A model generated the notes under the pieces. The model searched no databases and had not been told where the DNA came from. It saw only the letters and a program-made list of their open reading frames with translations. A stretch of DNA of 24,490 nt from Candidatus Vampirococcus lugosii (GTDB taxonomy: Bacteria; Patescibacteriota; Gracilibacteria; Absconditabacterales; Absconditicoccaceae), in contig NZ_JAEDAM010000097.1 of NCBI RefSeq assembly GCF_018420025.1, positions 1 through 24,490 on the forward strand. Reading direction: 5' to 3'. A program made the position numbers and the translations under genes. This document shows, piece by piece, positions 1 through 24,490 of the stretch (its first letter is position 1; each line of letters starts with the position of its first letter).

Positions 1-591
1 AAAAAAGCAGAAAATAATAAAAAAATACAACAATCTTTATTTGATAAACATGCATTATCAGAATTTGAAATACAAGATAAAAAATATATTTTATGTTTTA
101 ATCCTGCTAAACAATATGAAGATAAAGAAAATAGAATATTATTAGTAAAATCAACACAAGAAAGATTGGAAGAAGTTAAAAAATTTAAAAGAAATTATAC
201 AGTTAATGTGTTGCAAAATAAAATAAGCAAAAAAATAAGTAAAAATAAATGTAAAAAATATTTTAATTACAAAATTGTAGAAATTAAAATTAATAATAAT
301 ATTTATTGAAAATTAGAATATAAAGTAAATCAAGAACAAATAAATGAAGATGAAAAATATGATTGATTTTATATGATAGAAACTACAAGAAAAGATTATT
401 ATTATTTACTTCAAGATTTTAGATTAAAAGTTAAAGATTTATTACAAGAATATACATTAGATACATTATTAACTGAATCAAAAAATATAAGTAAAGTTTA
501 CTTTAGAATAGATAATATACATATAAATAAAGTAGAACAAATAAATGAGCTTCAAGAAAAAATATTTAAATTATTTAAAATAAAATTATAA
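1..591 (+). CDS. IS1634/IS4-like DDE transposase, C-terminal portion (5' end lies left of the window); possibly degenerate
   Basis: Frame 1 is open from base 1 to TAA 589..591 if TGA 307..309 and 364..366 are sense codons. The translation ...KKYILCFNPAKQYEDKENRILL...NEDEKYDGFYMIETT... follows the C-terminal pattern I recall for IS1634-type transposases (xCYNPxxAxxDxxxR ... DGKxxLxTN). The last ~24 codons plus about 90 nt downstream are repeated at 24207..24371. Confidence 0.55.
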
Positions 592-682
592 ATTTGTGTA
601 GTACATAAATCTATTTTTATTTTCTCGCAAATCCTTGTCTAAATCAAGGATTTAGAAATTTTGTTCTACAAAGATGAGTTTA
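519..682 (+). repeat. IS right-end repeat, copy A (transposase 3' end plus terminal region with hairpin 629..653)
   Basis: Manual alignment to 24207..24371 shows only 3 substitutions and 1 single-base indel over 164/165 nt. Contains a 9-bp stem AAATCCTTG/CAAGGATTT (629..637 / 645..653), enclosed by an imperfect outer pairing of 593..604 with 663..672. Confidence 0.85.
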
Positions 683-740
683 TAAAAACTAAGATTAATA
701 ATCACTATTCACAACACCTTTAATTAAAGTTCCGCAGTAG

Positions 741-1148
741 TTAAGTTGCTTTGCGACGACCGTATCAAGTCTTACGCTTCAAACCAGAAAACCGCAATCC
801 GGACCATATAATGTTATGCTTACTTCATCAGCCTTCACCTCATCAGCCTTCACCATTGCCTCAAATGTCCAAATGTATCTCATATGTCTTAATTCTATAT
901 GTCTTAACTTTACGACCTACTTTATCCAAACTATCTCATGATAAACTTATTTCATCTTGTTTTTTTACAATTTCACTATTATATCATGATACAACAAATG
1001 AATTTCAATCACTGTCTACCAATTGTGCATCTCTTGCTTTATCTACCCACTGTACAAGTATTAATCCTCCTACTACCGCCAAGATTGATATTATAACTAT
1101 AATTACTATCAACTCTACTAATGTAAATCATTTATTGTTTTTTATCAT
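741..1148 (-). CDS. Type IV pilin / pseudopilin-like protein with prepilin N-terminal cleavage-methylation motif
   Basis: ATG at complement 1146..1148, TAA at complement 741..743, 408 nt in frame. N-terminus is MIKNNK-G-FTLVELIVIIVIISILAVVGGLILVQWVDKARDAQ, the canonical G|FTLxE motif plus hydrophobic helix. The cleavage-site Gly is a TGA codon (complement 1128..1130). The 3' ~130 nt are compositionally atypical (see findings). Confidence 0.8.
825..854. repeat. Perfect 15-bp tandem duplication (TCATCAGCCTTCACC x2) inside the pilin gene
   Basis: 825..839 is identical to 840..854. On the coding (minus) strand it reads ggt gaa ggc tga tga twice, i.e. GEGGG GEGGG under table 25. Confidence 0.9.
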
Positions 1149-1470
1149 CTCTAATTATATATGAAATTATAAATATATTGATTTTTTCTTAAATCATTAA
1201 AAAAACACAATAAAAAAAATCTATCATACTTTTTTATTAACTCAAAAATTATTTATATATAAACCATCTAACTCACAAGTAAACTTGCTCATTTTTTCAT
1301 TAATTTTCAAAATTAAATATTAATTAATTTTTAATAATTAAATGATATTATTTTTTTTATATTTTTCAAGTTATCTTTTTGTTTTTTTATATTTTTTTAA
1401 TCTCTTATTGTCATAATTGAAAATTAATTTACTATATGTTTTAAAACATAAAATAATTACAAACAAAATA

Positions 1471-2388
1471 CTACCCCACTATATTTATATGTGGATTAAT
1501 AATTTTTATTTTTTCAGATTCTATATCTTTAAATTCTAAACTATAACAAGAAAGTTGTAAACTTAAATTATTATCATAATTTCAAAAATTATATAAGTAA
1601 TCTCATATTATTTCAGCTCAATTTTTCCATAAATGATATCTAATTTGATGTGTACGACCAGTTAATATTTCCAAATGTAAATATTTTTTATTTCAAATTT
1701 CAAAAAATCATAAAACTTTTGTTATTCATTTTTTTATTTTAGGATTTGGAGTTTTTGGAATTACATCTTGTTCAATATAAAATGGAATTTTTTTTGATAA
1801 AAAAAATTTTTCTCAAAAATTTGTAAATTTAATTTGTGCTATATATTCTTTTTTTAAAGATATAGATTCTTTTCATTTTATAGTTTCTTCTAATGTTTTA
1901 TTTTGAAATAAATTTTTGAAATAAGAAAGTCATTTTTCAGTTTTAGCTATCAACATAGGACCATCAGTTTCTTTATCTAACCTATGAATTAATCCTGATC
2001 TAATAAAATTTCCCAAACTTGGCAAAAATTTATACTTATTTAATAAAAATCAAACAACACTTGGACTTGACAAATCCCATATACTACTAGGATGAGATAA
2101 AACTCATTTTGGTTTATAAAGAACTATATAATCTTTTTTTTCAATAAAAATGTCTAAATCAATAAATGCTAAATCCTCTCTTATATCTCAATCTATAAAC
2201 CTTGTCATATTATCAACAATTATTTCATCTCAAGATTTTAATTTATATGATTTTTTTACAATTTTATCATCAACTTTTACAGCTCATCTACAAATCAAAT
2301 GATGAAAAAAATTTCTTGAATATCAAAAATTTATACTCAAAAATTTATCTATTCTCTGAGGAACTCAATCAAAAATTATTTTTTCCAT
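1471..2388 (-). CDS. rluD: RluA-family 23S rRNA pseudouridine synthase with N-terminal S4-like domain (RluD-like)
   Basis: ATG at complement 2386..2388, TAG at complement 1471..1473, 918 nt in frame with TGA=Gly. Motifs: KPKGVLSHP, HRLDKETDGPMLIAKT (the HRLDxxTSG catalytic Asp motif) and LTGRTHQIRYHL. Confidence 0.88.
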
Positions 2389-2461
2389 AAAAACTATTTG
2401 TTATATAAAAAATAGTTTATAATCTATTATATTAGATCAAAATCAATTTAAATTATTATAT

Positions 2462-4705
2462 TTATTTTTCTCTAACTCTTAAAGTTATATTTCAAACAAC
2501 TCTAGGATTATTTTTATAATTAAGAATTACTCTTATATTATAATTTCAAGCTTCATTATATGTTGTTGATATACTTGTATAAGTTCTTCATTCTCAAGAC
2601 ATAGTTTTTCAATTTCAAAAATTCCATGCAACAGATTCTAATTGTCAATCAGTATTAACCATAAATTTAACAACATCTCATACATTAGCAGACTGTGTTG
2701 GATGAGTTACAATATCTATCGTTGCTTGTTTAACTTGTCTTTTTACAAAAACATCTCAACATTTAGTTTTTTCTATTCATTTTCTTGTTATCACAGTTAC
2801 ACATGGTTTATAATGTCAATTATCAGCAGAAACATCAAAATTATATGTATGATTAATTTGTCATAAACTAGAATTTTTAATTTTTTCTCAATCACCTAAA
2901 TCCCAAGTATAATATACTATATTATCTCAATCTACAGTAACTCTACTTGCCGATGCATCAATATTTACCTGCAATGGTTCCTCTCATTCATCAGGAGAAA
3001 TTAATAAAATAGGTACAAGATCAGATTCTTCAACAATTACAGGAATAGTTTCAGTTACTTCATTTCACATAGGATCTACTATACTAATAGTAACATTTCA
3101 TTCTGTATTTTCTGTAAAATCGTATTCAAATTTATTATCTTCAAATTCATAAAAACTATCTCAATCAAATTTAATATCTGTTGAATATTCTCAATCTATT
3201 TTAGGATTTGTTCAATTTATTACAATATTCATTTTGGTAGGTAATACATCTATATTTAAAGTTTCATCATCTTCCTCATCTTCCTCTCCAAAATTATATT
3301 CAATAAATTTATCATTTGATCATTTTTTTAATAAAATTGAATAATCTATTTCATAACTTTTTAATCAAGATTTAAACTTATCAGTTTGACAATTTCATAT
3401 ATCTCAATTTCCACTTTCATAAGTCGCATATGCTATATAATTAACTCATTCTTGCAAATCTATAACAAATCTTCAATCTCTAGATTTTTCATTAACATAA
3501 GTTCTTTCAGTATCAATATTTTTTAATTCAATATTAAAATTTCTTGGAGAAACGGATGAAGGAGCACTAACATTAAATTGATAATTATTTCACGAAGATT
3601 CACGAAAACTAATATTACAATTTGGAACTTTTGGATCTTGAGTTCTTAAATCAAAATAAAATCTTTTTTCCGTAATATCAGGCAACTCTATATAAACTTT
3701 ATTAAGTTTAGATTCTCTATAAGTATAAACAACATTTCAAACATCACTAAAATCCGAAGAACCATTTCAATTCAAATCCCACGAGATATTCTGCTCTGAC
3801 AATCATAAATCTGTAAATAAAGAACTAGCATCAAACTGAACAGTTGCTGGTACAGTTCAAACTACAATTTCATTATTCGCATCATTCATAGAATATTCTG
3901 ATAATTTTATCTCAGTATCAAAATTAAGATCTATAATCTTTTGTGATATAGATCAAGCATTTCAAGCCCTATTATAAAATACTTCTATAAAAACAGAATA
4001 ATCTTTTTTGGTAGTATATAAACAATTTCATTGTATAAATCAATTATTGGAAAATATATCTCAAGATTTAATTAAATTTGATTGATTATTTCAACAACTC
4101 AACTCAACTGAAGTTATATTATTTATATTACCTATATCTGTAGGTAAATTATTTACAAAGACTGATTCATTTAATTGAAAAGCAAAATAAGATGGAGCAA
4201 TCAGTGGTAAATCATTTTGGAAAAGAACTGGTTCATCATTTTCCATAAGCAAATATGTATTTACTAAATTATTAGTAACAACTTCTCTTTCTCATGAAAT
4301 ATTATTTATACTAATTATACTAAATGTCCCAAAACCTAAAGTAGCAAGCAATAATATTCATCAAAATATCGATCAAATCAAATACTTAAATTTAGATTTA
4401 TTTGCAGTAAAAAATTTATATAAATTTAATGATAACAAGAAAAAAGCAAAGAAAAATAGTATACCAAAAAACATTATAGAAAAAATCAACAAAAGCTCTC
4501 TAATAGTTTCTGATTCTATACCAAATGCTGAAAGACTGTCAGGATTATTTAATATCCAATATAATGACAAAAAAGTTATCAATAAAAAAAACAAAAAAAT
4601 TCATAAACATCATATTACAAATCATTTTATAGATATCGTTTTTCATCTTTTAACTTTATTTTTAGTTCTATTAGTATTATTACTTATTTTTTCATTATTT
4701 CCCAT
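2462..4705 (-). CDS. Large membrane-anchored surface protein with PKD-like repeats
   Basis: ATG at complement 4703..4705, TAA at complement 2462..2464, 2244 nt in frame with many TGA=Gly. N-terminal hydrophobic helices (..FLFFLLITFLSLYWIL.., ..LLIFSIMFFGILFFFAFFLLSL.., ..ILLLATLGFGTF..). PKD-type signatures: PLQVNIDASASRVTVDGDNIVYYTWDLGDGEKIKNSSLGQINHTYNF...YKPCVTVITRKG and PATVQFDASS...ISWDLNGNGSSDF...VVYTY. The supplied ORF 4373..4594(-) is an in-frame fragment of this gene. Confidence 0.75.
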
Positions 4706-5161: not shown

Positions 5162-5295
5162 AAATTATATTTTAAGTATTAAATTATATTTAATATATAA
5201 ATAATAAATTTACTTGATTTTGAAATATAAATAAATATAAAAAAATAACTAAATTAATTAGTTGAAAATTTTTTATTTTATTTTATTTCATTTTT

Positions 5296-6216
5296 ATGAA
5301 AATAGCTTTTGTTGGTAAATGATGAAGTGGAAAAAGTACTATATCAAGTTTATTTACAAAATATCTTTTGGACCAAAATCTAGCAGTATTATGATTTGAT
5401 GCCGATATAAATGTCAATTATTTACAAAATATAAAAATTAATGCAAAAGAATATTTAGCTATATCAAAATCTAATAATTCTGAAAAAATAAAAAGTTTTT
5501 TGATTGGAAATAATAAAAAAATTGAATCAATAAATCATTTTATCAAAACCACTCCTCCTTGACAATGATCTAAATATTTGGAATATGACAAAAATAATTT
5601 TATTATACAAAATTTTTGACAAAAATTATGATCATGATATTTCTTTTATGTAGGAAAATATGAAAGTAATTGAATTTGAACTAGTTGTTATCATAATAAT
5701 TTATCTATATTTGAAAATATACTTTCTCATACCAAACTTAAAGAAAATGAATATTTAGTATCTGATATGTCTGCTGGTACTGATGCTTTTTCAAATACTT
5801 TACATGCACAATTTAATAAAATAATTCTTATAGTAAATCCAAGTCAAGAATCTATAAAAGTTGCAAAAGATTTTTTACAATTATGAAAAGATGCAAAAAC
5901 GGAAAAAAATATTTATTTAGCAATAAATAATTATGAAGATCAATATGAAATTGATTTCATAGAAAAAAATTTATGAAAAAAAGTTGATATATATTTTGAA
6001 AAAAATAAAATAATAAAACAAAAATCTTTATTTTGACAAGAGATTAGTTTACAAGACACAAATTATACTAAAAGTTTTGATAAATTATTAAAAATAAATA
6101 ATTGATATGATGATAAATGTATAATAGAAAATTTAAAATTATTACATAAAAAATATTCACAATTGTGATACATAATAAGAAGAATTTGAGATGTTTCTTT
6201 ACAAGCAAAAGATTAA
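5296..6216 (+). CDS. SIMIBI-class P-loop NTPase, CooC/MinD/ParA-like
   Basis: ATG 5296..5298 to TAA 6214..6216, 921 nt. Deviant Walker A MKIAFVGK-GG-SGKST, where the GG are two consecutive TGA codons (5320..5325). CooC-like central motif GIGTSCYHNN. Walker B-like region YLVSDMSAGTDAFSNT...IILIVNPSQESIKVAKDF. Confidence 0.75.
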
Positions 6217-6222
6217 TAAAAT

Positions 6223-7629
6223 ATGAAAAATGTTTTTAAGTGACCTGATTCAATAAAAAATTATTTAAATCCAAACAATCATATAACTCCCCTTCTACAA
6301 CTACCTGCAAATTTAAATAAATATGAGAATGAATGAATTCATATATATGCAAAATTATTACAAAATCTACCTTTGTATAATGTAAAATCAATTCCTGCCT
6401 ACAATATGATATCTGAAAAAAATGAAAATAACAAAACAATAGTAGAAAGTTCATCATGAAATACTGCATATTCTTTATGTATACTTTGAAAAGTATTTTG
6501 ATATAATTCTATGATAAGTTATGCATCTGAAGAAGTTTGAGAATGAAAATTAGATATACTTAGATTTTTTGGCTCACAAGTTGTAATAAATCAAGAACCA
6601 ATTTGTCCAAATCCAAATGATGAAAATAGTTCAATAAATATAGCAAAAAATTTATGAAAATCAAAAAAGTATATAAATTTTGGGCAATATGAAAATCAAA
6701 AAAATCCTGAATGACATTATAATTATACTTGACCACAAATATATGAACAAATGGAATGAAATATTGATTTTTATTGCTCTTCATTATGAACAACTTGAAC
6801 TTTTATAGGTACAAGTAAATATTTGAAAGAAAAGAATCCAGAAATAAAATCAATATGAGTAGTTAGGAAACCAAATAATCCAATACCTGGACCTAGAACA
6901 GAAAACTTACTTAATCAAATAGCATTTGATCGAAAATCACAATTAGACTACTTACAAAGTGTATGAACCAAAAGAGCATATATACAAAGTCTTAATTTAT
7001 CAAGAAATTGAATAATTGCTTGACCAAGTTCTGGAATGATTTTGGAATGAGTTTTTCAATTTATAAAAGAAAATTATGAAAAAATACAAGAATTAAAAAC
7101 AAAAAAATGAGAAATAAATATAGTTTTTATATGTTGTGATTTACCTTTTTTGTATATTAAAGATTATTTTAAATATTTGGATCAAGAACTTTTTCCAGAA
7201 ATTAAAAATAAACATTTGATAAAATCTATAAATACTAATAATTTTGATATTAATATAGAAATTGAAGTTGATACATTTTTTAAAAAATTTTTTTATGAAG
7301 AAAAAAATAAAATTTGGGAAGCAATAAAAAATGATAAAGAAATATCTACCAGACAAAATATATTGCTAATAGATATAAGAGAAAAAAAATATTATCAACA
7401 TTTTTATATACCAAATAGCAAAAATATTCAAATAAATGATTTGGAAAAATATATAGAAAGTGATAAAAATAAAGAAATATATTTAATATGTGAATATGGC
7501 TGACATTCAAACGAAATTGCTATTAAATTAAAAAATAGATGATATAATTGTTTTAGTATCAAATGATGAACTATTGAATGGTCAAAATTAAATTTACCTA
7601 GAATTAAAAATGAAATATGTAATTTTTAA
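6223..7629 (+). CDS. Cysteine-synthase-like PLP-dependent (fold type II) enzyme fused to a C-terminal rhodanese domain
   Basis: ATG 6223..6225 (6 nt after the upstream stop) to TAA 7627..7629, 1407 nt. CysK/CysM-type motifs: ..LYNVKSIPAYNMI.. (candidate PLP lysine), VESSSGNTAYSL, AGPSSGMILEG. C-terminal rhodanese: LLIDIREKKYYQHFYIPNSKNI and active-site loop CEYGGHS (7489..7509). The supplied ORF 7150..7503(+) is an in-frame fragment. Confidence 0.8.
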
Positions 7630-7727: not shown

Positions 7728-7985
7728 TTAATAAATAATTGAGGACAAAATCAGAATAATAATACCAATTATAACTGGAATTAACAGTAAAAGAAAATAT
7801 TTAAATTTTTCTTCCAACTTTATATTAAATTTTTTCAAAAGTGGATCTAAATGTTTATCTATAGTTGCTTTTACTTTTTTTCTATTTGGATATTCATAAT
7901 CTATAAATTCCAAAATCGCAATTATAAAAATAACTAAAGAGAAAAGAGCATTTAAATTAGTTAAAATAAGATATAAAGTAGCCAT
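7728..7985 (-). CDS. Small hypothetical membrane protein (85 aa)
   Basis: Intact standard-code ORF with no TGA. Hydrophobic N- and C-terminal helices flank a charged loop (YEYPNRKKVKATIDKHLDPLLKK). No family recognised. Confidence 0.5.
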   Translation of the reverse strand: MATLYLILTNLNALFSLVIFIIAILEFIDYEYPNRKKVKATIDKHLDPLLKKFNIKLEEKFKYFLLLLIPVIIGIIILILSSIIY

Positions 7986-8270: not shown

Positions 8271-9479
8271 ATGAATATAAAATATATATTATTATTGTTT
8301 ATGTCATTTTTACCATATTCATCTTTTGCAAACATAGATACAAGTTTATGTACTCCTAAAACTTTTATAGTTTCAGGTTATTATTCATCCCTTCCTAATC
8401 AAACATTTTATTATAGAGAAAATTATGATAGAGAGATTAGACTTAATTGAAGATGAACACATTGAGCAAGTGGTCAAGCTGTATTTAATTGAATGATTGC
8501 TGCTCCTAAAAATTATAAATTTGGTACTAAAATTTATTTTCCTCAATATTGAGTTGGTGAAGTTCATGATAGATGACAGGCAATAGTAAATGCAGGTGTG
8601 AGATGATATTCAAATGATAGAATAGATATTTGGATGTGACATTGAGAAGATTGATTAAAGAGAGCTTTAAGTTTTGGTAAACAAAAAGTTACTTGATATA
8701 TTTGTCCAGATAATGTTGAAGTTTGATTTAATATGAATAATTTTTTGATTCACGAAAAATTTTTTGATGTATTAATTTGGAGTATATATTTGGAACCATG
8801 AAGAAAAGATCAATTTGTAAAAACTTTACAAAAATATTTATATAAACTTTGATATCTTAAAAAAGAACATCAAACTTGATATTATTGAGAAGTAACTAAA
8901 CAAGCAGTTTGTAGTTTTCAACAGAAAATGTGATTAACTTATCCTTGAAGTTGAGTTTGTTGATATTTTTGACCTAGAACAAGAAATACTATGAAAAATC
9001 TGGCTATAGCTAATAAATTATTTAATAATTCGTTTTATAAAAAATTAATTTCTATCAATGAATTGGAAAATATTAATTTATCAATTAAAACAAAAAAAGA
9101 AAACTTAAAAGAAGAAAAAAATATAAACACAAAAAAAGAAGAAATCTTACAAAAAATAAAAGATGAAATTTTAAAAGAAGAAAATAATATTACAAAAGAT
9201 AAAAAACAAGAAAAAGAAGAAAAATTATTTGTATTTACTAGATGAATTTGACCTTGAGAAAGATCAGCCGAAGTAGGCCATTTACAAGAAGCATTAAAAA
9301 CTGTCGGTTATTATGAATGAAAAATATCATATGAATATGATGATAATACATTGGAAGCAGTTTATAATTTTCAATTAGATCAATGAATTATAAATCATAA
9401 AACAGATTCTATGGTAAAATGATATTTTGGACCTTCTACTAGAGCATCTTTGAATTGAATTTTAATTCAGCAATTATAG
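8271..9479 (+). CDS. Secreted cell-wall protein: 3D (MltA/RlpA-like) domain plus two peptidoglycan-binding (PG_binding_1-like) repeats
   Basis: ATG 8271..8273 to TAG 9477..9479, 1209 nt. Signal peptide MNIKYILLLFMSFLPYSSFA. 3D-domain pattern GMIAAPKNYKFGTKIYFPQYGVGEVHDRGQAIV...RIDIWMG. PG-binding repeats LQKYLYKLGYL...GYYGEVTKQAVCSFQQKMGL and LQEALKTVGYYEGKISYEYDDNTLEAVYNFQLDQG. A Lys/Glu-rich linker separates them. Confidence 0.8.
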
Positions 9480-9629: not shown

Positions 9630-10838
9630 ATGTATATAATATATTGAAAATGAGAAGTTTGACAATGATTGAAAAAATTATTTAATTTTTTGAATATTAA
9701 AAATATTATTTGTGATGATAGAGATTTTTTGGATATTGAAATAAATGATGATGACAAAATAATTTTGTCGCCAGGAATTAAACCTAGTCATTTTATTTAC
9801 AAATTTCATAAAAATAAAATCATTTCTGAATTGGATATGATTTACAAAATATTAAAAAAATATAATTTAAACAATAAATTTAATTTTATATGAATTACAT
9901 GAACAAAATGAAAATCTACTACTTCTTGGATATTATATAATATATTGAAACAAAAATATGATAATATATATTTGTGATGAAATTTTTCTCCTTCTTTGAG
10001 TGAAGTTTTGTATAATATATTTTCTAATTGAAAGAAAAATGAAGTTAATACAATAATAGTAGAACTTTCTTCATTTATGCTTTACAATACTGATTATTTT
10101 GATTTTCAAAATTCTATATTTACAAATATAGAAACTGATCATCTTGATCGACATATTGATTTCCAAGATTATTTTGCTAGTAAACAAAAAATATTTAAAT
10201 TTACAAAAAATAAAGTATATATTTGAAATAATTTATCAAGTAATTTATCAAATAATCTTATCAAGATTGATAAATATGAGTTTTTTGAAACTAACTTATT
10301 ATGAGAACATAATCAAAAAAATATAAATTTTGTTTATAAAATATGTAAAAATCATTATCAAATAAATAAAAATGAATTTCAAAATTATTTATATAATATA
10401 AATTCTTTGCCAAATACTTTGGAATTTGTAAAAGAAATAAAATGAGTAAGTATATATAATGATTGAAAATCAACAACTCCATGAGCTTTGAGATCAGCAT
10501 TAGAATCTTTTGATAAAAAATTAGTTTTGATAGCTTGAGGATATGATAAATGAGCAAATTTTGATGAATTATGAGAAATTTTTGTTTCAAAAATTAGTTT
10601 TGTATGTTTAATATGAAACACAGCTCCCAAAATAGCTAATATAATGAAAAATTATAATATAGATTATCAAATATATAACTCATTACAAGATGCAAGTGAA
10701 AATGCAATAAATGAAGCTATAAAAAGAAATATAGATATAGTTTTATTTAGTCCTTGATGTTCAAGTTTTGATATGTTTGATAATTATAAACATAGAGCAA
10801 AAGTGTTTTTAAATAGTATAAAAAAAAATAATGAATAA
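9630..10838 (+). CDS. murD: UDP-N-acetylmuramoyl-L-alanine--D-glutamate ligase
   Basis: ATG 9630..9632 to TAA 10836..10838, 1209 nt. N-terminus IIYGKGEVGQGLKKLF..IICDDRD. ATP-binding loop G-ITG-TKG-KSTT (9891..9923) with three TGA=Gly. Further motifs: IVELSSFML, TNIETDHLDRH, NDGKSTTPGA, LIAGGYDKGANF, LFSPGCSSFDMFDNYKHRAKVF. The start could instead be TTG 9669, as in the supplied track. Confidence 0.92.
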
Positions 10839-11424
10839 TAATAAATTGGAAAAATTAGTTGAAATATTTTTGGAAAAAAATAAACATATAAATCTTTCTT
10901 CTATAAAAACTTACGAATGAGTTTGGACAAAACATATTTTGGATTCTATAGAATTTTTGAAAATTTTTGATATTTCTTGATGAAAAAAAATATTGGATTT
11001 ATGAACTGGTTGAGGTTTTCCGTTAATTCCTCTAGCTATTGAAAATACTGATTCTCAATTTATTTGATTAGATTCTAAAAAGAAAAAAATAAATGCTATT
11101 AATGAAATAATACAAAAATTGTGAATTAATAATGTTAAAGGAATTTGGTCAAGATGACAAGAACATAAAAATAAATATGATATATTGACAAGTAGAGCTT
11201 TTGCATATGTTGATAAATTATTTAATTGTTGATATCATTTGGTAAAAAATAACTGATATTTTGTACTTTATAAACAAGAAAATGATTTGGAAAAAGAAAT
11301 TTTGAAAAAAATTTGTAAACAAAAATCTCTTAAATTAGAAATAGAATATAAATATCAATTATTTGATTGAGATATAAATAGAATAATATATATTATAAAA
11401 AAACAATCTATTGGTAGTAGCTAA
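10831..11424 (+). CDS. rsmG: 16S rRNA (guanine527-N7)-methyltransferase
   Basis: ATG 10831..10833 overlaps the murD stop (ATGAATAA) and the ORF ends at TAA 11422..11424, 594 nt. Motifs: NLSSIKTYEGVWTKHILDS, ILDLGTGGGFPLIPLAI (SAM-binding, with Gly encoded by TGA), TSRAFA. Confidence 0.85.
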
Positions 11425-11557
11425 TATTAGCTATATTTTTAAGTGTTAATAATTATATTAATATTTATTAAAAAAACTTATATTATTTATTATATTGTTG
11501 AATTTTATAGATATAAAAAAATACAAAAATAGCAAAAGATAAAAAATAGAAAATAAT

Positions 11558-11603
11558 TTATTTTCTTAAAAATCCTTGATTAAATCAAGGATTTAGAAAT
11601 TTT
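11558..11603 (+). repeat. Orphan copy (B) of the IS-end hairpin module, in the convergent rsmG/GNAT intergenic region
   Basis: TTATTTTCTtaaAAATCCTTGatTAAATCAAGGATTTAGAAATTTT matches 620..665 (and 24309..24354) at about 41 of 46 positions. Perfect 10-bp stem 11570..11579 / 11585..11594. None of the transposase-coding part of the repeat is present. Confidence 0.8.
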
Positions 11604-11606: not shown

Positions 11607-11930
11607 TTAACATCTAATTGCAAAAATATTTCATTCAAATTCTGCTCACAATCTTTCATATATTTGATACAATTGATCTAGTGAAACATCATCAATTGGT
11701 TCTATTTGTCACTCTATATTATAATATTTTGAAAGAATATTTTTTATCATAGATTTCGCATATCAATTACATCTATATTCTTTACCTACCCATAATTTTT
11801 TTAACCAAACTCAATTATTTTCTATACTAAATAATGCAAAAATATTATCACTAATTTCTGCATCCAATAATTCAGATCATTTAGATACTAATATTTTATC
11901 TCAATAATAATCTTGTTCTACAAATTCCAT
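11607..11930 (-). CDS. Small GNAT-like acetyltransferase-fold protein (107 aa), tentative
   Basis: ATG at complement 11928..11930 (11 nt after the leuS stop), TAA at complement 11607..11609, 324 nt. LWVGKEYRCNGYAKSMIKNIL resembles GNAT motif A (V..YRg.G.a..Li). The protein is short and the family assignment is weak. Confidence 0.45.
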
Positions 11931-11941: not shown

Positions 11942-15094
<3,153 letters not shown>

Positions 15095-15107: not shown

Positions 15108-15965
15108 TTAACGAGTAAATTTAGTAGAATTAGTTTGTCTTCAATCTCATTGCAAAAATTCTAAATTTTCTTTTAATCATTCTTTTATATCTGATATTAA
15201 ACAAGAGTCCAAAGCATTATCTTGACAAAGTCAATATGCAACTTGAACTTTACTTTCCATTCATCAAGTTCATGAACTAGAACTTCAATCACAATTTTGT
15301 AATAAATTTTCCAAAGATATATTTTCTATATTTATCTGTGGAATAGGACAAAAATATCAATCTATTGATATACAAAAAGCCGTATTTGTATATATTATTC
15401 AATATATTTTTTCATAATCTCACAAAATTGAAAGTAATTCTACAATATATGCAAATAATCTATCATTATCTTGCAAAACTGCTAGTGCTTCCAACTCAAG
15501 TTTATCAACAGCATCATTAAAATTAATAATAGGTGTTATATTATTTTTCAATAAATCATTCAATAAGTTAAATGTATTTTGATCTTGTTTTTGTTTTATA
15601 AATTTATCATGAAAATCCTCTATAAGTTTTTGAAATCTAGTATATCAAATATTTGAAAAATCAATATTTGAATTATAACTTACCAAAACTTGTCATATCA
15701 TAGGTCCCAAAACTTGTTTCCAAAAATCCATAAGTTTCATCTGTCCAACACTTGCTGATAATTGTGAAGATATATTTTCTCACAAAATTGATTTTCACAT
15801 TTTTACAGCTCAAGAAGAGATTATAACAAAATCCATTTTTTCATCAAAATCCGATATTGCATCTCATATTTGTTTTCTAAAATAAGAAATAGATTCTTCA
15901 TAAGTCATACTATTTGAAACTATTGAATCTGATCAAAATTTTAACACACATAAATTTTTGTTCAT
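15108..15965 (-). CDS. proB: Glutamate 5-kinase-like amino-acid kinase (no PUA domain)
   Basis: ATG at complement 15963..15965, TAA at complement 15108..15110, 858 nt. Motifs: [71 protein letters not shown]. Together these match the ProB/amino-acid-kinase pattern. Confidence 0.72.
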
Positions 15966-16001: not shown

Positions 16002-18473
16002 TTATTTTCTTAATTCAGCTCAAAATTTTTCTGCATTTTCAATAGCTTTCCGTAATACTTTATTTACTTGTTCAGAATTTAAATCTCTAGCATCTATAGT
16101 TAAAGTTATAGATATACTTTTTTTATTTTCAGGAATATTTTCTCATTTATAAATATCAAAAATTTCTATATCAATAACTCATTTAGTATTTAATATAGCA
16201 TTTTTAATTCACAAAAAACTTTCTTGTATATCCAGCAAAAAACATAAATCTTTTTTGAAAATATTATCATTTACAGATAAATAATCAACTCATCCAAAAT
16301 TAGATTTTTGATTATTAATAATATTTAACACAGTATCCAAATTCATTTCTACATAAGAAATTTCACAGTTTTCAGGAAATTTAAAATAATCAAAATAAAT
16401 AGGATGAATACTTGCTATATAAGCTATATCATTTCAATTTAGAAGAATCTTTGCTTGTTTTTTGGGATGAGATATTTTATTATCTGCCAATTTAAATTCT
16501 AATTTTCATTTCAAATTTAAATCTTTTATTAAATTATGAAAAACTCATTTAATATACAAAAAAGCATCATCTTTCCAAGATTCTTTATTTTTGGTATAAT
16601 ACAAAAAATTAAGTTTACTAATTTCATTTGGTCTAATTCAATCTCATAAATTCCAAACATCTCATATATCAAAAATTTTTATTTGGTCATAAACTCTAAA
16701 ATTTTTTTGAACTACTCACAACATACTATAAATCAAATTATCTCTCAAATAAGAAGAATCACTTATCAAAGGATTTTTCATTTGTACAAGTTTTTTAAAA
16801 TCAACATCCATCAATTTCAATATTCATTCATCCAACCAAGGATAAGTCTCTACATTTACAAAATTCATATTTATTAAACTATCTTCAATTTTTCTCTGTA
16901 AATCTATTTCTTTAATCAAAGAATTATCTTGTATATTCCAATAAAGTTTTTTTTCTTCAATATTTTCATAAGAATAAATTCTTGCTACTTCTTCATAAAG
17001 ATCTTCTTTTATATTTATATCTCTAGGAGATCTTCGTAAAGGAACTTTTACTTTATCTTCATAAATTTCAAATCATATATTTTTCAAAATATTTTTTGCA
17101 TTTTGAGTAAATCATTCTTTTTCTTCACCAAACAAAAAATATTGTATTTTATCAAAATCTATTTGTACAAATTTATTATACAAAAATTTATATTCTTCAT
17201 TGAAATAAAAATCAATTCATCAAATTTCATAATTTCATAAAGATTTTTGAAAATATTTTAATTCGTCCAAAAACAATAAAAGAGTATATAAAGTAAATAA
17301 AGGATTAATATTTTTTTCAAATCTTAATTCTGCATCAGTTCTTAATCAAAGTCTTGTTCAAGTTTTCCTAACACAAACAGGGTCAAAATTAGCTATTTCT
17401 ACTAATATATTTTTAGTTTTTTTAGTAATTCAAGAATTTATTGAACCAATAATTCATGCCAATGCCAATATTTTTTCATCATCAGCAATTACTAAATCAG
17501 TATTTTTCAAAATATGTTCGTTTTCAAAAAGATCTATAAATTTTTCTCATTCTTTAGCTTGTCTTACTATTATTTCTCAATAAATTTTATCTGCATCAAA
17601 AAAATGAACAGGATTACCACTATAATTCATAAAATAATTACTAAAATCTACCCAATTATTTACCAAACCTTGCCCCAAATCAGAAAGATACATTCATAAC
17701 AAAAAATCTGTTTCAGCAACATTAATGTTATTTAATTCCAAAGCTATATAAGATCTTAAATTTTGAGATTGAGAATTAATTCTTATTTTTGATTTATTTG
17801 ACATACCCAAAACATCAAAAATATTTGTATTTTTCCAATTTTTCAATATTTGAGAAATAGTATTATATTTGATTTTGCCAGTATCAGAATATATTCCAAA
17901 TAAATCAATTGATAAACCAAAATGTCATGTCATATCAGCCCTATTAGTCAAATTTTTATTATCAACATCTATTACAAGATTATCCAAAAATGCAAATTTA
18001 TCAGTCAAAGATTTACCCAAATCATCATCAGATAAATATTCATCAAAATCTTGATCCAATAACCAAATATCATGTTTATCCAGATCAAGTTTGATACCAA
18101 GTTCTCATTTTGAACAAATCATTCATGAACTCTGTAATCATCTCATTGTCCTATCAGAAATTTTTAGATCAATTTCAGGAAGATAAGATCATGGAAGAGC
18201 TACAGCAATATATCTATTTCAAACCATATTTTCTCATCAAGTTATTATTTGATATTGTCATTTATCGCCACAATCTACTTGACAAACTACAAGTTTATCA
18301 GCATCAGGATGTTTTTCCACTTTATTAGCTTTTCATATAACAATATCTTTTGGTATTTGTCTAATAGTAAAATCTTCAACTTCACAAGATTTTAGAGTTA
18401 ATTCTTTTTGTATATTTTCAACATTATCATCAATATTTATCAATCTTTTAAGTATATCACCAGAATAAAGCAT
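16002..18473 (-). CDS. pheT: Phenylalanyl-tRNA synthetase beta subunit
   Basis: ATG at complement 18471..18473, TAA at complement 16002..16004, 2472 nt. N-terminal tRNA-binding domain IGKANKVEKHPDADKLVVCQVDCGDKGQYQIITGGENM...MRGLQSSGMICSKGELG. B3/4 region NRADMTGHFG. B5 region and C-terminal anticodon-binding-like domain (IEIFDIYKGENIPENKKSISITLTI). Confidence 0.93.
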
Positions 18474-18583: not shown

Positions 18584-19288
18584 TTAATTTCTAATTCATA
18601 CATTATTTATATATTTATAAGCAATTTTTTGTAAATCTTGAAGTTCTTTATTTGTAAAGCTTTTTCAAGTAAAATCATTATCCAAAGTTTTTCAAGATTG
18701 ATAATTTTGTATAAAAAAATTATTAGCTCATTTTATTTCTTTTACAGTATCTTCAAAAATTTCAATACTATGAAATCATTTAATAACTGTAGTTCTAAAC
18801 TCATAATTTATATTTGAATTAATTATTATATTTATACTTTTTTTATAAGATTCAATATTTAAATTTTTTACTCATAACATTTCATTATATTTATAAAATG
18901 GATATTTAATATCCATAGCAATATAATCAATTAATTTATTTTTTATCAATTCATTTAATATTTTTGGATCTTGTCAATTAGTATCTAGTTTTATTAAAAA
19001 TCACATTTCCTTAATTTTTTCACAAAAATCAAATAAATCTTTTTGTAAAGTAGGTTCTCATCCACATATAGAAACTCATTGCAAAAGTCATTTTCTCTTT
19101 TCCAAAAAATTCAAAAATACTTTTTGTGGAATTAAATCATTTTTAATTTCTTGTATTTTTTCTGGTAATACAAATTCAGGATTATGACAAAAAGGACATC
19201 TTAAATTACAAGAGACTGTAAAAACTATACATGAAGTTTTATCAGGATAGTCTATCATACTAAAAGTATTTATTCATCATATCAACAT
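18584..19288 (-). CDS. nrdG: Anaerobic ribonucleoside-triphosphate reductase activating protein (radical SAM)
   Basis: ATG at complement 19286..19288, TAA at complement 18584..18586, 705 nt. N-terminus GGINTFSMIDYPDKTSCIVFTVSCNLRCPFCHN (CxxxCxxC cluster in the NrdG/PflA-type context), followed by GVSICGGEPTLQ. Confidence 0.85.
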
Positions 19289-19317: not shown

Positions 19318-20907
19318 TTATTCATCTAATTTCATAACAGTTTCCAACAAATTTTCTCTTGCTATTCATTGAAATTCAGAATTTTGAGAATAAGCAATAG
19401 CTTTTATATAATTTTGTCTAGCATTTTTATAATCTCATTTTTCAAAATAAATATCTCATATTTTATTGAAAAGATAATCTCTAGGATATTTTTCTACCAA
19501 AAAATCTAAATATTTATATGCAATTTCATCTTCTCATCTTGCTACATGAAATCAAGCTCTAGCATATCTACAAATTAAAGGTTCTTGTAAATCTTCATAA
19601 CAAGCTGTTATATATGAAGTTGCTAATTGAAAATTATTTTTAAATAAGTCATTAAAATCTTCTTGAAAATTTCATTTATAAAAAATTATATCAAAAAATG
19701 TATAAAAGTCATAATCGGTTAATGGCCTATTTTGTAAAATTCTAGCAAAACTTTTCATCATATTTTCATAATCTCAAATTTTTTCATAAGCCAAAGCTAA
19801 ATATCTATATTTATTTTTTATAAAATAAATATCATCAATTTCATTAAGATGAACTATAGCTGTTTGATTATTACCCAACCAAAAATTACTTATTCAAATA
19901 TAGTAAGTATATAAATTTTTATTATCTTCATCTATATCTATAAGTTCTGTAAAATGTTTTATAGTAATTTCATAATCTTTTCTTATAAAACTACTTTCTC
20001 ATATTATTTGATGCATAAGAATATAATTAGGATTAATTCTTAATACTTGATCTGCCAATTTCTCTGCAATTTTGTAATCTCAATTTTTCATAAGAACAAA
20101 TGCTATAAGTCAATCCATAAAATATTCTGGTGGATTAGTAAATCTATAATATTGATCTATTGCCACATTTAAATCACTTTTAAACTCTGAATACTTTCAA
20201 TCAACATCAATCTTTTCTATATTTTCCAAAAACTTTTCAATATCATTATAAATAATATCAAATAATAATTGATAATATATATGATCTTGTTCATCTATTT
20301 TTTTTTCTAAATAAAATTTATTTACTTTATTTTTTAAATCATCTACTGATGATCTTGTAAATTCAATAGTATTTATCTTTATATTTATATAAACTATAGG
20401 ATCTATTTTATCTATTTCTATCTCTTCTAAATATTTTGATGCTGATTTATAATCATTATTATTATAATATGAATTTATAAGTTCTAATAATACTTCTTCT
20501 TCTTTATTTTCTTTATACAATATTTCCAATATTTCTATTTTTTTTATTTTATCCGTATTGTATTGACCACTATTATATATTTCTTGTAACATTTCAGAAT
20601 CGTCTTTTAATCAAACTTCCAAATCCAATTCTATTTTATTTTGTTGTTCTTCTTTTTTATTTTCTTTATCTTGTTCTTTATTTTCATCTATATTATTTTG
20701 CATAGCTTTATTTTTTAAATCTGTTTTATTTTCATTATGTTTTTCAAGTTCTTCATAAAATTGCATATCCACTTCATCCATTTGAGATTGAAATTTTTTT
20801 ATATCTTGCTCAAATTCTTTTTCAGCTTGATATGCCATATACAAAAATATAATTCATATTACAATGAATATACTTATTATTAAATATATAAATTTAGTAT
20901 TTTTCAT
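19318..20907 (-). CDS. Membrane-anchored coiled-coil / TPR-repeat protein
   Basis: ATG at complement 20905..20907, TAA at complement 19318..19320, 1590 nt. It joins supplied ORFs 20611..20844(-) and 20197..20592(-) through in-frame TGA codons. N-terminal TM helix FIYLIISIFIVIGIIFLY, an acidic coiled-coil stretch, then TPR-like repeats (e.g. GDYKIAEKLADQVLRINPNY, GDYKNARQNYIKAIAYSQN). Confidence 0.7.
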
Positions 20908-21125
20908 ATATATTTTTTACTATATAAATCTAATTTATGAATTATAACATACTTTAAATATTTACAATAAATAGTATAAATATAGAAATTATTAATAAAT
21001 AATATTGTTAAAAAATTATTTTCTTTAATTTTTAATTTCTTTCTATTAAGAAATAATAAAATATTATCAAAAATAAAAATAATATTTTTTAAAATTAAAA
21101 ATTTCTAATTAACTTAATATATTAT

Positions 21126-21380
21126 TTATAATGAATAAATAAATTTATAAATACTATCAAATACATAATAATATTCTGGATTATCTTTTACTATTTGTTT
21201 TATATTTTCTATTTTTGGAATTAGAGATTCAGCAAATCAAGGATTTAATTCATTTCTATAAAGTATTTGATCATATATTAAATTTACTTTTTTGTTACTA
21301 ATTTCTTTATTTATATATTCATAACTAGCAAAACTAAAACTTGGAATTATTATTAATAATAAAATAAATATTTTTTTCAT
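21126..21380 (-). CDS. Small secreted hypothetical protein (84 aa)
   Basis: ATG at complement 21378..21380, TAA at complement 21126..21128, one in-frame TGA. Signal-peptide-like N-terminus MKKIFILLLIIIPSFSFA. No family recognised. Confidence 0.45.
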
Positions 21381-21430
21381 CTTACAACAAAACTTAAATG
21401 ATAAAAAATATTTATTGAAAATATAATTTT

Positions 21431-22441
21431 TTAATTAGAATTTATTTTAAATGATTCTACATTTATATAAGAATTTTTAAAAGAAAATTCTATTTCTGCC
21501 AAAAAGTTTTTATCTCAATCAGTAAAGGAAATTTCTGCTACAGTTCCTCATGTCCATCTAATATTTTTTACTTGATAATTTCATCAATCATTAACTATAG
21601 AATTAATATTATTTAATATAAATTCTCAATACATTTTTGTAAAATTAATACTTCAATTTTCAATATAATTAGATACATTTACATTTGTTCTTGTATCACT
21701 AGAATTATCAGACTCTATTTCATTTTCTTCTTCATTTTCTTCTTCAATATCATTTTGATTATTTTCTTCTTCAATATCATTTTGATTATTTTCTTCCTCA
21801 TTATCAATTTCTTCCTCTTGATTATTTTCTTCTTCAATTTCTATTTCTTTAAAAGAATTAACATAAACAAGTCCATCTCTATATGCAACAGTTATTAAAG
21901 CCAAAATATTTTCTCAAGCAGAATTATATAAAACTTCAGCTTCATTTCATGTTGTCCATCTAATACTAATTACTTCATTTTTTCATTCATTTGAATTAGC
22001 TAGTTTATTTATATTCTCTTTTATATATGTATTATAAAGTGCTGTAAAATTTCAATATTCAGATATTAAATATAATTTTTCTCAATTTCTTGTTGTTTGA
22101 TTTGTAGTCGTTTGATTTGTGGTATTTTGCTCAGTAGTATTATTATTTACTTGACTTTCACTTTCATCTTGATTATCATTAGAGTCTTGATTTAAATTTT
22201 GATCATCATCTTGCTCATCATTTTCCTCATTTTCCTCATTTTCCTCATTATCATCATCTTCCTCATTTTCTTCTTGTATATCTGATTCATCAATAACTCA
22301 AACTTCTTCATTAAAAAATTCTTCAAATTCATCTAAATTCATTCAAGCATTTGTTGATTGAGAGTCTCATTCTGATTTAGTACAAGCAGAATTAAGAAGA
22401 AAAAACACAAATAATAATATTAATAAATATTTTTTATTCAT
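21431..22441 (-). CDS. Putative lipoprotein with two copies of an unknown ~80-aa domain separated by acidic low-complexity linkers
   Basis: ATG at complement 22439..22441, TAA at complement 21431..21433, 1011 nt. Signal/lipobox-like MNKKYLLILLFVFFLLNSAC. Domain 1: ..YGNFTALYNTYIKENINKLANSNEGKNEVISIRWTTGNEAEV... Domain 2: ..GSINFTKMYGEFILNNINSIVNDGGNYQVKNIRWTGGTVAEI... The supplied ORF 21653..21904(-) is an in-frame fragment. Confidence 0.65.
21734..21796. repeat. 27-bp tandem repeat (about 2.3 copies) encoding EEENNQNDI units in the lipoprotein linker
   Basis: Period-27 identity read directly: 21734..21769 matches 21761..21796 with no mismatches, and identity is bounded by mismatches at 21733/21760 and 21770/21797. 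Confidence 0.85.
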
Positions 22442-22652
22442 AAAAAAAATCATATTATATATATAAATATATATTTGTATATAATAATATTAATAAATAT
22501 ATCAAGTAAAAATTAATATAAATTTATATATTTATTTTTAAATAATCACAATTTTTTATAAAAAATATAAATCACTTTTAATATTGAAATATTAAAAAAT
22601 ATATTTATAAGTTTTTTGTATAAAAATATTATTTAAATATATAAAATATATA

Positions 22653-23843
22653 ATGGTAGATTCAGATATTAAAATATTTTCTGACAATATATGAAGTATA
22701 AATCCAAAACATCCTGCTTTTAATTTATTAGAAATGGAAATATGGGAACTAATTGAAAAATTTTTAAGAACAAAAAAATCTATAAGAACTCAACAAAGTT
22801 ATTTTACAGATTTAAAATTTTTTTTTGAAAAATATGAAATATATGATTGTAAAAAACTTCTTAATTATTATTCCAATTATGAACTTAGTGATATGATAAA
22901 TGATTATATAAATTCTAGCAAAAAAGTTGATCCACAAGATCCTAATAGAATATATAATCCAAGAACTGTAAACAGAAAAGCATATTCACTTTCTTCATTT
23001 TTTAAATTTTTACAAAAAAGATATAAATTAAACTATAATCCTGTAATGTTTGATGCACTCAATACACCCAAATATTCAAGCACTAACAGTATAAATAATG
23101 AAGAATTAAAAAATATATTAAATTTTCTCAAACAAAAATATGAAAATGAAAATAATAAAATAAAGAATTTAAGAAATTATTTAATATTTTGTTTTTTTTC
23201 TTTCTCTTTAAGAAGAAATGAAGTAAGTAAATTGAGATGGCAAGATATAAATAAATCTGAAAAATATATACAAGTATTACAAAAATGAAATACAACAAAA
23301 TTAATTCCTATACCATCAAATGTTTATGAATTATTATTAGAATTTCAAACATTAAAAGCTAGTTTATGATATATATGAGATTATATTTTCACACCATTCA
23401 ATAATAATAAAACTAAAACAATAAATAAACCTATAAGTCCAGATTATTTATATAATTTGGTTATTAAATTATGGAATGAATTTGAAACAAATACTCAAAT
23501 TCAAAATATATATCAAAAAATTAATAAATTACAAAACAAGAAAAAATATTTAAATAAAAAATTAAAATTAAACAAAAATATAGAAATTGAAGAAAAAATA
23601 AATAATATAAATTATGAGATAAATAATCTAAAAAATATGAAAAAAGAAATATTAAAAAATAATAAACAAATTTCATGTCATAGTTTTAGAAAAACATTTG
23701 TAGAACAAGCGATACTTAGATGAGATGATTTCGTGCAAATACAAAATGCTACAGGTCATACTAATCCAAATATGATTAATTATTATCAAACTATAAATAA
23801 AACTAAACATAATTCTATAAATAATTTAGATAATTTTTATTAA
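22653..23843 (+). CDS. Tyrosine site-specific recombinase (phage-integrase/Xer family)
   Basis: ATG 22653..22655 (alternative ATG 22734) to TAA 23841..23843, 1191 nt with in-frame TGA=Gly. N-terminal SAM-like domain (SIRTQQSYFTDLKFFFEKY, KAYSLSSFFKFL). Catalytic motifs LRRNEVSKLRWQDI (Arg I), SCHSFRKTFVEQAILRG (HxxR), IQNATGHTNPNMINYY (His plus Tyr nucleophile). It joins supplied ORFs 22734..23288 and 23457..23723. Confidence 0.85.
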
Positions 23844-23861
23844 TTCCCGCCCGGGCGAGAA
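23844..23861 (+). other. GC-rich element TTCCCGCCCGGGCGAGAA directly after the recombinase stop: tRNA 3'-end-like fragment or palindromic recombination/att core
   Basis: It is the only strongly GC-rich run in this part of the window. It contains the perfect 10-nt palindrome CGCCCGGGCG (23848..23857). It can also be read as T-stem 3' strand (TCCCG or CCCGC) plus a 7-nt acceptor 3' strand plus discriminator. No D-arm or anticodon arm lies upstream, because that sequence is recombinase coding. Confidence 0.4.
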
Positions 23862-23892
23862 TTAAATTTGAAAAAATTAGAAAAATCATTAT

Positions 23893-23931
23893 AAAGTTAG
23901 TATTTTTTTATTTTATATACTAACTTTTTTT
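23893..23931 (+). terminator. Rho-independent terminator-like hairpin downstream of the recombinase
   Basis: AAAGTTAGTAT (23893..23903) pairs perfectly with ATACTAACTTT (23917..23927) and is followed by a T-run. Confidence 0.6.
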
Positions 23932-24206
23932 ATATGCAAGAACAAAATCATCTACAAAACATACTTTACAATCATCTTTGTAAATAAAAAATAGCAAAAA
24001 CAAGTTAAGAACTGAAGAAAAAGAATTTAAAAACGCATTTTGTAGTGGCGAGTATTATTGTATTTTCTCTTGAAATTATGATTTTTTTATTATAATAAAA
24101 TATATTGTTTCTTGTATTTAAAAAATTCCTCGCAAATATAATTAAAAAACTTATGTAGCTCATTATCTTATTGAATCTTTTAGAGATAAAGATACAAAAA
24201 AGTAAA

Positions 24207-24371
24207 ACATATAAATAAAGTAGAACAAATAAATGAGCTTCAAGAAAAATTATTTAAATTATTTAAAATAAAATTATAAAATTTGTGTAGTACACAAATC
24301 TATTTTTATTTTCTTGCAAATCCTTGTCTAAATCAAGGATTTAGAAATTTTGTTCTACAAAGATGAGTTTA
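24207..24371 (+). mobile_element. Truncated IS remnant: copy C of the IS right end (last ~23 transposase codons, stop at 24277..24279, terminal hairpin 24318..24342)
   Basis: Near-identical to 519..682 (4 differences by manual alignment). Sequence upstream of 24207 shows at most patchy, gapped resemblance to 340..518, so the transposase body is missing or decayed. Confidence 0.8.
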
Positions 24372-24385
24372 ATGTATATTAAAAT

Positions 24386-24490
24386 TTATTCATTACGATT
24401 AAAAATTCATGAGTAATATTCTTCTTCCCATTTTTCATCTTCTTTTTTAGATTCTCAATTTTTAAAATCATTTATATTCCCATATACTAT
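24386..24490 (-). CDS. 3' end of a hypothetical CDS that continues beyond the right window edge
   Basis: Minus-strand frame is open from the window edge to TAA at complement 24386..24388 (105 nt, two TGA=Gly). Translation: ..IVYGNINDFKNGESKKEDEKWEEEYYSGIFNRNE. Too short to assign. Confidence 0.35.

Follow-up and report, generated by a model that had tools for sequence, protein, structure and literature searches.

Comparative evidence for three changed codons in Candidatus Vampirococcus lugosii: UGA as glycine, and CGA and CGG as probable tryptophan codons

We analysed contig NZ_JAEDAM010000097.1 of Candidatus Vampirococcus lugosii over its whole length of 24,490 bp (the window, below), and find it highly probable that its genes use a code in which three codons have changed meaning: UGA specifies glycine, and CGA and CGG specify tryptophan. 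The meanings of the three codons are taken from comparison of the window's genes with those of near and distant relatives. V. lugosii belongs to the Absconditabacteria (SR1) and lives as an epibiotic predator, and the paper which describes it states that UGA encodes glycine (PMC8080830). UGA as glycine is thus already published for V. lugosii and its clade, and this part of the result repeats known biology. What is added here is confirmation of UGA as glycine that does not depend on any translation, and independent, codon-level support for the predicted reassignment of CGA and CGG to tryptophan in a named, microscopically characterised absconditabacterium.

The window has a G+C content of 20.7%. 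In the standard code it contains 11 stop-to-stop open reading frames (ORFs) of at least 100 amino acids (aa), the longest of 198 aa, and non-overlapping ORFs chosen greedily with table 11 cover between 8.5% (ORFs of at least 100 aa) and 33% (at least 50 aa) of it. When TGA is read as sense, coverage rises to 85-88% and the longest ORF to 1073 codons, and the 19 genes which we defined in this way fill 87% of the window (Table 1). Of the 19, 18 contain in-frame TGA codons, 349 in all, and none has TAA or TAG in frame; 17 genes end in TAA and two in TAG. Pfam scans with TGA masked recovered complete domain architectures across dozens of TGA codons: leucyl-tRNA synthetase (LeuRS), phenylalanyl-tRNA synthetase (PheRS) beta chain, a MurD-type ligase, RsmG, an RluD-type synthase and a PALP-rhodanese enzyme, as well as a radical-SAM activase, an integrase, a type IV pilin and a ParA-like ATPase. 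The closest relatives by protein search are A. praedator and metagenome-assembled genomes of Absconditabacterales. A preliminary description of the window, made from its letters, had called the standard-code ORF track misleading, had counted about 20 coding sequences filling the window, each ending in TAA or TAG, and had pointed to Absconditabacteria or Gracilibacteria as the lineage. All of this agrees with what we find, and the comparison of coding density between codes which it proposed restored density only with TGA as sense.

Glycine at UGA codons

We aligned the window's genes to six orthologues from E. coli K-12 (leuS, pheT, murD, rsmG, nrdG and rluD). The 123 TGA codons aligned in this way face glycine 55 times, alanine 13 times and tryptophan not once, and the enrichment in glycine over the background of 6.9% has p=5e-31. 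All 32 codons with at least eight aligned E. coli positions were also put to a BLOSUM vote, which assigns TGA to glycine and leaves 28 of the 31 other codons with their standard meaning; the exceptions are ATA and ATT, where valine is marginally ahead of isoleucine, and AAC, where glycine is ahead of asparagine (n=11), all of them near-ties or small samples. Distant homologues of MurD give the same assignment: in 114 sequences from standard-code phyla (Aquificae, Elusimicrobia, Firmicutes and others), none above 34% identity, the TGA columns hold 58.5% glycine and 0.0% tryptophan, compared with a glycine background of 6.1%, and seven of these columns are glycine in 112-114 of the 114 homologues.

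The same question can be put to the DNA of relatives. In the corresponding genes of ten relatives from independent assemblies, codons aligned with a window TGA are TGA 178 times, GGN 95 times and TGG never, and codons aligned with a window TGG are TGG 81 times and never TGA or GGN. The overall composition is also informative: glycine makes up 6.1% of residues when TGA is counted and 1.1% when it is not, and tryptophan would make up 5.7% if UGA encoded it. The deposited V. lugosii LeuRS (P0001) is identical to our translation at all 979 non-TGA residues and has glycine at 71 of 71 TGA codons, and the deposited MurD (P0241) is identical at every non-TGA residue and has glycine at 20 of 20. The assignment of UGA to glycine, and not to tryptophan as in Mycoplasma, was the central claim of the preliminary description and is upheld by each of these comparisons, as is the enrichment of TGA columns in glycine which it had proposed to look for, here counted with E. 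coli orthologues, distant MurD homologues and the codons of relatives. It is as secure as sequence comparison allows.

TGA falls on conserved glycines of several unrelated proteins, among them the Walker A motif of the ParA/MinD-like ATPase, the residue preceding the prepilin cleavage site, the motif G-ITG-TKG-KSTT of MurD, the HIGH region and Nudix box of LeuRS and the LDLGTGGGFP motif of RsmG. The coordinates that the preliminary description had quoted for these motifs proved exact on re-check (Table 1). One MurD codon departs from its column: residue 279 (10464-10466), in the motif ND-S-K, is TGA (glycine), whereas E. coli and all 114 of the distant homologues have an invariant serine. Because Gly/TGA is also found at this residue in A. 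praedator and in three further relatives, we rejected a sequencing error; the lineage has replaced a serine of a conserved Mur-ligase motif by glycine.

UGA is also the dominant glycine codon. It accounts for 349 of the 430 glycine codons in the 19 genes (81%), compared with 81 for GGN, and for 4.9% of the 7091 codons in the window, in keeping with the earlier impression by eye that UGA is the major glycine codon and outnumbers GGN. Among the pheT genes of relatives its share of glycine codons ranges from 4 of 54 to 50 of 56. The dominance of UGA fits A+T pressure: one synonymous change turns GGA into UGA, and the neighbouring codons AGA, UUA, UCA and UGU are the common ones here. It clearly exemplifies how, under such pressure, a stop codon once captured can come to outnumber all four canonical codons of the amino acid. 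The GGN codons that are left are placed unevenly: in g03, g09, g10, g12, g14 and g15, with both codon classes masked before alignment, a larger fraction of them than of the TGA codons falls on glycines conserved in E. coli (17 of 24 and 55 of 122, respectively; p=0.026). This bias could reflect selection for accuracy where a glycine is critical; a neutral origin is equally possible, with new glycines at variable sites arising mostly as TGA in an A+T-rich genome.

CGA and CGG as probable tryptophan codons

Shulgina & Eddy (2021) predicted with Codetta that CGA and CGG have been reassigned from arginine to tryptophan in Absconditabacteria (PMC8629427). Vampirococcus is mentioned nowhere in that paper, and none of the papers that we searched ties V. 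lugosii to this reassignment. The window contains three CGA and three CGG codons, together with 149 AGA, 9 AGG, 6 CGT and 1 CGC; AGA makes up 87% of its Arg-box codons. We compared five of the six CGA or CGG (CGR) sites, those in g06, g09, g12 and g14; the sixth is residue 119 of the pilin-like g02. All five align with TGG codons of relatives or with tryptophans of standard-code homologues, and with AGA or AGG in no case.

At residue 480 of the PheRS beta chain (PheT) the window has CGA. The E. coli residue is tryptophan, a column of 120 homologues holds 77 W, 42 R and 1 F, and the closest relative (P0121) has TGG; all five of the relatives rendered as 'R' whose DNA was read have CGA. The CGG of PheT residue 808 is matched by CGA in A. 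praedator and P0122 and by TGG in P0123. The CGA of MurD residue 174 is also CGA in A. praedator and is TGG in P0245, and the T. maritima protein 4buc reads DHLDWH here, with tryptophan. At LeuRS residue 414 (CGG), the closest relative (P0002) has TGG, a table-25 translation of A. praedator has W, and P0010 has a CGG, the only one in its gene. Lastly, the CGA at residue 237 of g06, a PALP-rhodanese enzyme, stands opposite tryptophan in the solved homologue 8h4q_N (97-bit alignment).

Taken together over the relatives' DNA, the 16 codons aligned with a window CGR are TGG in 4 cases, CGR in 9 and AGR or CGY in none. The 190 codons aligned with a window AGR are AGR in 139 cases, CGY in 2 and CGR or TGG in none. 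Fisher tests on the CGR versus AGR contingency return p=2e-5 and 2e-9, values which overstate the evidence because relatives share ancestry and are phylogenetically non-independent. Every one of the ten CGR-containing columns in the compared genes has TGG (8 columns) or aromatic or hydrophobic codons (2 columns) in other lineages, and AGA in none. This joint pattern is what tryptophan at CGR predicts and not what arginine predicts, and CGA and CGG very probably encode tryptophan rather than arginine, with arginine written almost entirely as AGA. Alignments to Protein Data Bank structures by themselves were set aside for the CGA sites as ambiguous (W/R/H for PheT, W/Y/R/F for MurD).

Two statements of the preliminary description have to be amended in this light. 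It had said that tryptophan positions use TGG, which is true of both tryptophans in the LeuRS motif KKWQEYW but is incomplete, as CGR would supply about 10% of the tryptophan codons (6 of 59). It had also named translation table 25, which is right about UGA and departs from the behaviour of CGA and CGG as tryptophan codons. We are fairly confident that the V. lugosii code comprises three changes (UGA to glycine, CGA to tryptophan and CGG to tryptophan), that no NCBI table matches it, and that the deposited proteome has arginine where the cell inserts tryptophan.

Several points weigh against this three-codon code, and some of them speak for plain table 25, the reading of the preliminary description and of the NCBI annotation. 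There, CGA and CGG are rare arginine codons, and columns with both W and R record tolerated single-base changes between tryptophan and arginine. TGG and CGG are indeed one substitution apart, and the case made above for CGA and CGG draws on six window codons, five of them compared. MurD residue 174 is arginine in 23 of the 114 distant homologues and in E. coli, and PheT residue 480 is arginine in Staphylococcus and histidine in Thermus; single CGR sites are not decisive, because arginine is common at these two columns in some distant bacteria. NCBI translations of V. lugosii have arginine at CGA and CGG positions. As to UGA, 45% of the aligned TGA codons face glycine in E. coli and the remainder face other residues, as expected at variable positions, and low-level ambiguous decoding of UGA may occur and would be compatible with the sequence data. 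The decoding genes are a further point: ARAGORN found no tRNA gene and we found no release-factor gene within the 24,490-bp window, and among the matches listed from a pattern scan for Gly-type tRNA(UCA) in 185,579 species genomes, none is labelled Vampirococcus or Absconditabacteria.

Plain table 25 is the only rival that we regard as live, and we consider it improbable. Under it the CGR columns should also show AGA, the main Arg-box codon here, and yet AGR or CGY accounts for 0 of the 16 pairs at window CGR, compared with 141 of 190 at window AGR, and CGR occurs at no conserved-arginine column. CGA is two substitutions from TGG and is nevertheless shared by five of five relatives at PheT residue 480. 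The occurrence of TGG in another lineage at eight of the ten CGR columns, and the tryptophan opposite the g06 codon in a solved homologue, also argue for the three-codon code.

Other readings, known codes and a possible decoding route

Public protein predictions from these lineages would at first suggest the assignment of table 4, in which UGA means tryptophan and which is known from the Mycoplasma/Spiroplasma code and from some insect endosymbionts. That UGA is sense in this genome of very low G+C content is clear, and tryptophan occupies positions of glycines conserved in E. coli in 107 of 119 retrieved LeuRS homologues (P0002-P0120) and 107 of 120 PheT homologues (P0121-P0240), about 90%. 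In P0242, a second copy of V. lugosii MurD, from Logan, all 20 TGA codons are rendered as W. These lineage homologues, with tryptophan on universally conserved glycines, are products of gene calling with table 4 instead of table 25. The comparisons which are independent of such gene calls leave tryptophan at UGA extremely unlikely: it is absent opposite TGA in E. coli and in the distant MurD homologues, the relatives' DNA alternates TGA with GGN and never with TGG, and the tryptophan content of the proteins would reach the 5.7% given above.

The choice of table has practical consequences. Table 11 shatters every gene; table 4 gives full-length proteins with tryptophan on every key glycine; and table 25 still writes arginine at CGA and CGG, where tryptophan is expected. 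Profiles, alignments, structure predictions and phylogenies built from these lineages inherit the translation errors. We rejected close database homologues as a Codetta-style reference for the same reason: their columns are circular because most relatives were translated with table 4, and the pooled TGA columns hold W 2668 times and G 2642 times.

The standard code, with in-frame TGA codons put down to pseudogenisation, amplification or assembly errors, programmed read-through or selenocysteine, is next to impossible: the genome does come from a few micromanipulated cells (PMC8080830) and UGA does serve as selenocysteine or read-through in rare genes, but the 349 in-frame TGA codons contrast with zero TAA or TAG, their sites are kept as TGA or GGN in ten independently assembled relatives, they include catalytic glycines of essential enzymes, and no Rfam family, SECIS-type or other, matched the window at gathering score.

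The code proposed here can be set beside three known ones. It agrees with the Codetta prediction for Absconditabacteria (PMC8629427) in the assignments of UGA, CGA and CGG, in AGA as the main arginine codon, and in the rarity of CGA and CGG (4.2 per 10,000 each in the window; <37 and <7, respectively, in that paper). The tRNA-Arg(GCG) which that paper describes for the candidate phyla radiation (CPR) is also seen here, beside pheT in one relative. The two analyses differ in kind: the published prediction used whole-genome Pfam-column statistics and gives tRNA evidence for the clade, whereas ours is a codon-by-codon comparison in few genes, and V. lugosii was compared from its codons alone. Table 25, the Candidate Division SR1 and Gracilibacteria code, is attributed to Campbell et al. 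2013 and Rinke et al. 2013 in the later papers that cite them. Its users are Absconditabacteria or Gracilibacteria (GTDB class JAEDAM01), and V. lugosii falls among them. It shares with V. lugosii the reading of UGA as glycine, UAA and UAG as sole stops, and a low-GC, small-genome CPR lineage; it differs in keeping CGA and CGG as arginine, and in V. lugosii UGA is the dominant glycine codon and not merely an additional one. With table 4, found in Mycoplasmatales/Entomoplasmatales and several insect endosymbionts, the likeness is that UGA has been captured for sense in a reduced genome rich in A+T, where loss of release factor 2 (RF2) is the presumed enabling step (PMC8629427, PMC6851277); the captured codon means tryptophan there and glycine in V. 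lugosii.

For the tRNAs, the loss of RF2 and the order of evolutionary events we draw on the literature of the clade. In all BD1-5 genomes prfB is absent and prfA retained, and UGA as glycine has been validated proteomically in a BD1-5 bacterium (PMC6851277). Identity criteria for tRNA-Gly(UCA) have been published, as has the reading of CGU and CGC by tRNA-Arg(GCG), which leaves CGA and CGG to tRNAs with UCG and CCG anticodons and tryptophan features (PMC8629427). On this model, V. lugosii would possess a dedicated tRNA-Gly(UCA), charged by glycyl-tRNA synthetase (GlyRS) through the acceptor-stem elements G1:C72, C2:G71, G3:C70 and U73. RF2 would have been lost, with release factor 1 (RF1) terminating at UAA and UAG only, and strong A+T mutation pressure would then have replaced GGN by UGA at most glycines. 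The readers of CGA and CGG would be tRNAs with UCG or CCG anticodons and tryptophan identity (G73 and no A20), and tRNA-Arg(GCG) would read CGU and CGC. As a speculation of our own, tRNA-Gly(UCA), which would be abundant given the share of UGA among the codons, may misread UGG through wobble at U34, and tryptophan on CGA and CGG may be an escape from this ambiguity between glycine and tryptophan.

ARAGORN detected only tRNA-Ser(GGA) and tRNA-Arg(GCG) in the loci of the ten relatives. The pattern scan returned a nearly invariant 79-nt tRNA(UCA), with the glycine acceptor stem, in at least about 59 Gracilibacteria-type genomes. Among the matches listed there are also tRNA(UCA) genes with a Gly-type acceptor stem (GCG...CGC-U) on contigs labelled Anaerolineaceae, Akkermansia, Archangium and Gemmatimonadales (L023, L052, L090, L124), which might represent suppressor-like tRNAs, contigs of recoded CPR bacteria that contaminate the bins, or chance matches. 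The supplementary files published with V. lugosii mention none of tRNA-Gly, prfA, prfB, LeuRS or Nudix (PMC8080830).

Gene content, the LeuRS insert and repeat elements

Table 1 Genes, insert and repeat elements of the window, with the codons and motifs discussed in the text.
Feature	Position (strand)	Description	Length	TGA codons	Stop	Codons, motifs and matches
g01	1..591 (+)	partial ORF from left contig end	196 codons	2	TAA	no Pfam match
g02	741..1148 (-)	type IV pilin-like	135 aa	10	TAA	Pfam N_methyl 23.5 bits; TGA at complement 1128-1130, prepilin -1 Gly before FTLVEL; CGG 792-794 = residue 119
g03	1471..2388 (-)	RluD-type pseudouridine synthase (S4 + PseudoU_synth_2)	305 aa	16	TAG	
g04	2462..4705 (-)	membrane protein with PKD domain	747 aa	45	TAA	
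g05	5296..6216 (+)	ParA/MinD-like P-loop ATPase	306 aa	16		Pfam CbiA 23.2 bits, under cut-off 25.4; Walker A GK-GG-SGKST, TGA TGA at 5320-5325
g06	6223..7629 (+)	PLP-dependent (PALP) enzyme fused to rhodanese domain	468 aa	23		CGA 6931-6933 = residue 237
g07	7728..7985 (-)	small hydrophobic ORF, putative gene	85 aa	0		
g08	8271..9479 (+)	secreted protein, two peptidoglycan-binding domains	402 aa	28	TAG	
g09	9630..10838 (+)	MurD-type Mur ligase	402 aa	20		G-ITG-TKG-KSTT at 9891-9923, TGA at 9891, 9900 and 9909; CGA 10149-10151 = residue 174 in DHLD[x]H
g10	10831..11424 (+)	RsmG 16S rRNA methyltransferase	197 aa	11		Pfam GidB 130.7 bits; LDLGTGGGFP, TGA at 11002 and 11011
g11	11607..11930 (-)	ORF without assigned function	107 aa	7		
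g12	11942..15094 (-)	leucyl-tRNA synthetase with nested NUDIX domain (aa 397-515)	1050 aa	71		HIGH region PYPSGAGIHVGH at complement 14945-14980, TGA at 14966, 14960 and 14948; CGG 13853-13855 = residue 414
g12 NUDIX domain	about 13550-13906 (-)	NUDIX hydrolase domain, complete				Pfam 37.3 bits; Nudix box 13754-13822, four TGA
g13	15108..15965 (-)	amino-acid-kinase family	285 aa	18		
g14	16002..18473 (-)	phenylalanyl-tRNA synthetase beta chain	823 aa	35		CGA 17034-17036 = residue 480; CGG 16050-16052 = residue 808
g15	18584..19288 (-)	radical-SAM activase (NrdG-like)	234 aa	13		
g16	19318..20907 (-)	TPR-repeat protein	529 aa	14		
g17	21126..21380 (-)	small ORF, signal-peptide-like N-terminus	84 aa	1		
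g18	21431..22453 (-)	acidic repeat protein, lipoprotein-like N-terminus	340 aa	14		
g19	22653..23843 (+)	tyrosine recombinase/integrase	396 aa	5		Pfam Phage_integrase 44.3 bits
Direct repeat, left copy	519-682	last 24 codons of partial g01 and 90 nt downstream				161/165 identical to right copy
Direct repeat, right copy	24207-24371	364 nt past g19, among stop-filled frames	165 nt			161/165 identical to left copy
47-nt element, first copy	616-662		47 nt			copies 89-100% identical
47-nt element, second copy	11557-11603	between convergent g10 and g11	47 nt			copies 89-100% identical
47-nt element, third copy	24305-24351		47 nt			copies 89-100% identical

The LeuRS of the window carries a NUDIX hydrolase domain nested in its CP1 editing domain, at approximately residue 369 of E. 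coli LeuRS, and its Nudix box, G-x5-E-x7-REIKEETGY, is intact. The insert is common to 38 of the 119 LeuRS homologues. Other domains are nested in or fused to the LeuRS of relatives: a Ham1/ITPase-like domain (at two different sites), a PD-(D/E)XK nuclease, a serine hydrolase and DUF2000. A literature search found no paper describing a NUDIX domain nested in LeuRS.

The best solved relatives of g06 are the chains 8h4q_N and 8h4h_N, annotated 'Rhodanese domain-containing protein' (E=8e-27 over a 140-aa fragment), to which it is much nearer than to ordinary cysteine synthases. For the product of g14, the intact PheRS beta chain of V. lugosii, the protein collection has no near-identical entry (best 61% identity); it does contain the LeuRS and MurD of the same contig.

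A direct repeat of 165 nt lies near the two ends of the window. We rejected terminal redundancy or a circular contig as its cause, as identity is confined to the two copies; it resembles either an att-like duplication or what remains of a repeated or mobile element. A shorter element of 47 nt is present in three copies. It folds into a 9-11 bp hairpin, AAATCCTTG...CAAGGATTT (-11.7 to -13.7 kcal/mol), followed by AGAAATTTT, and is likely a terminator or a REP-like element.

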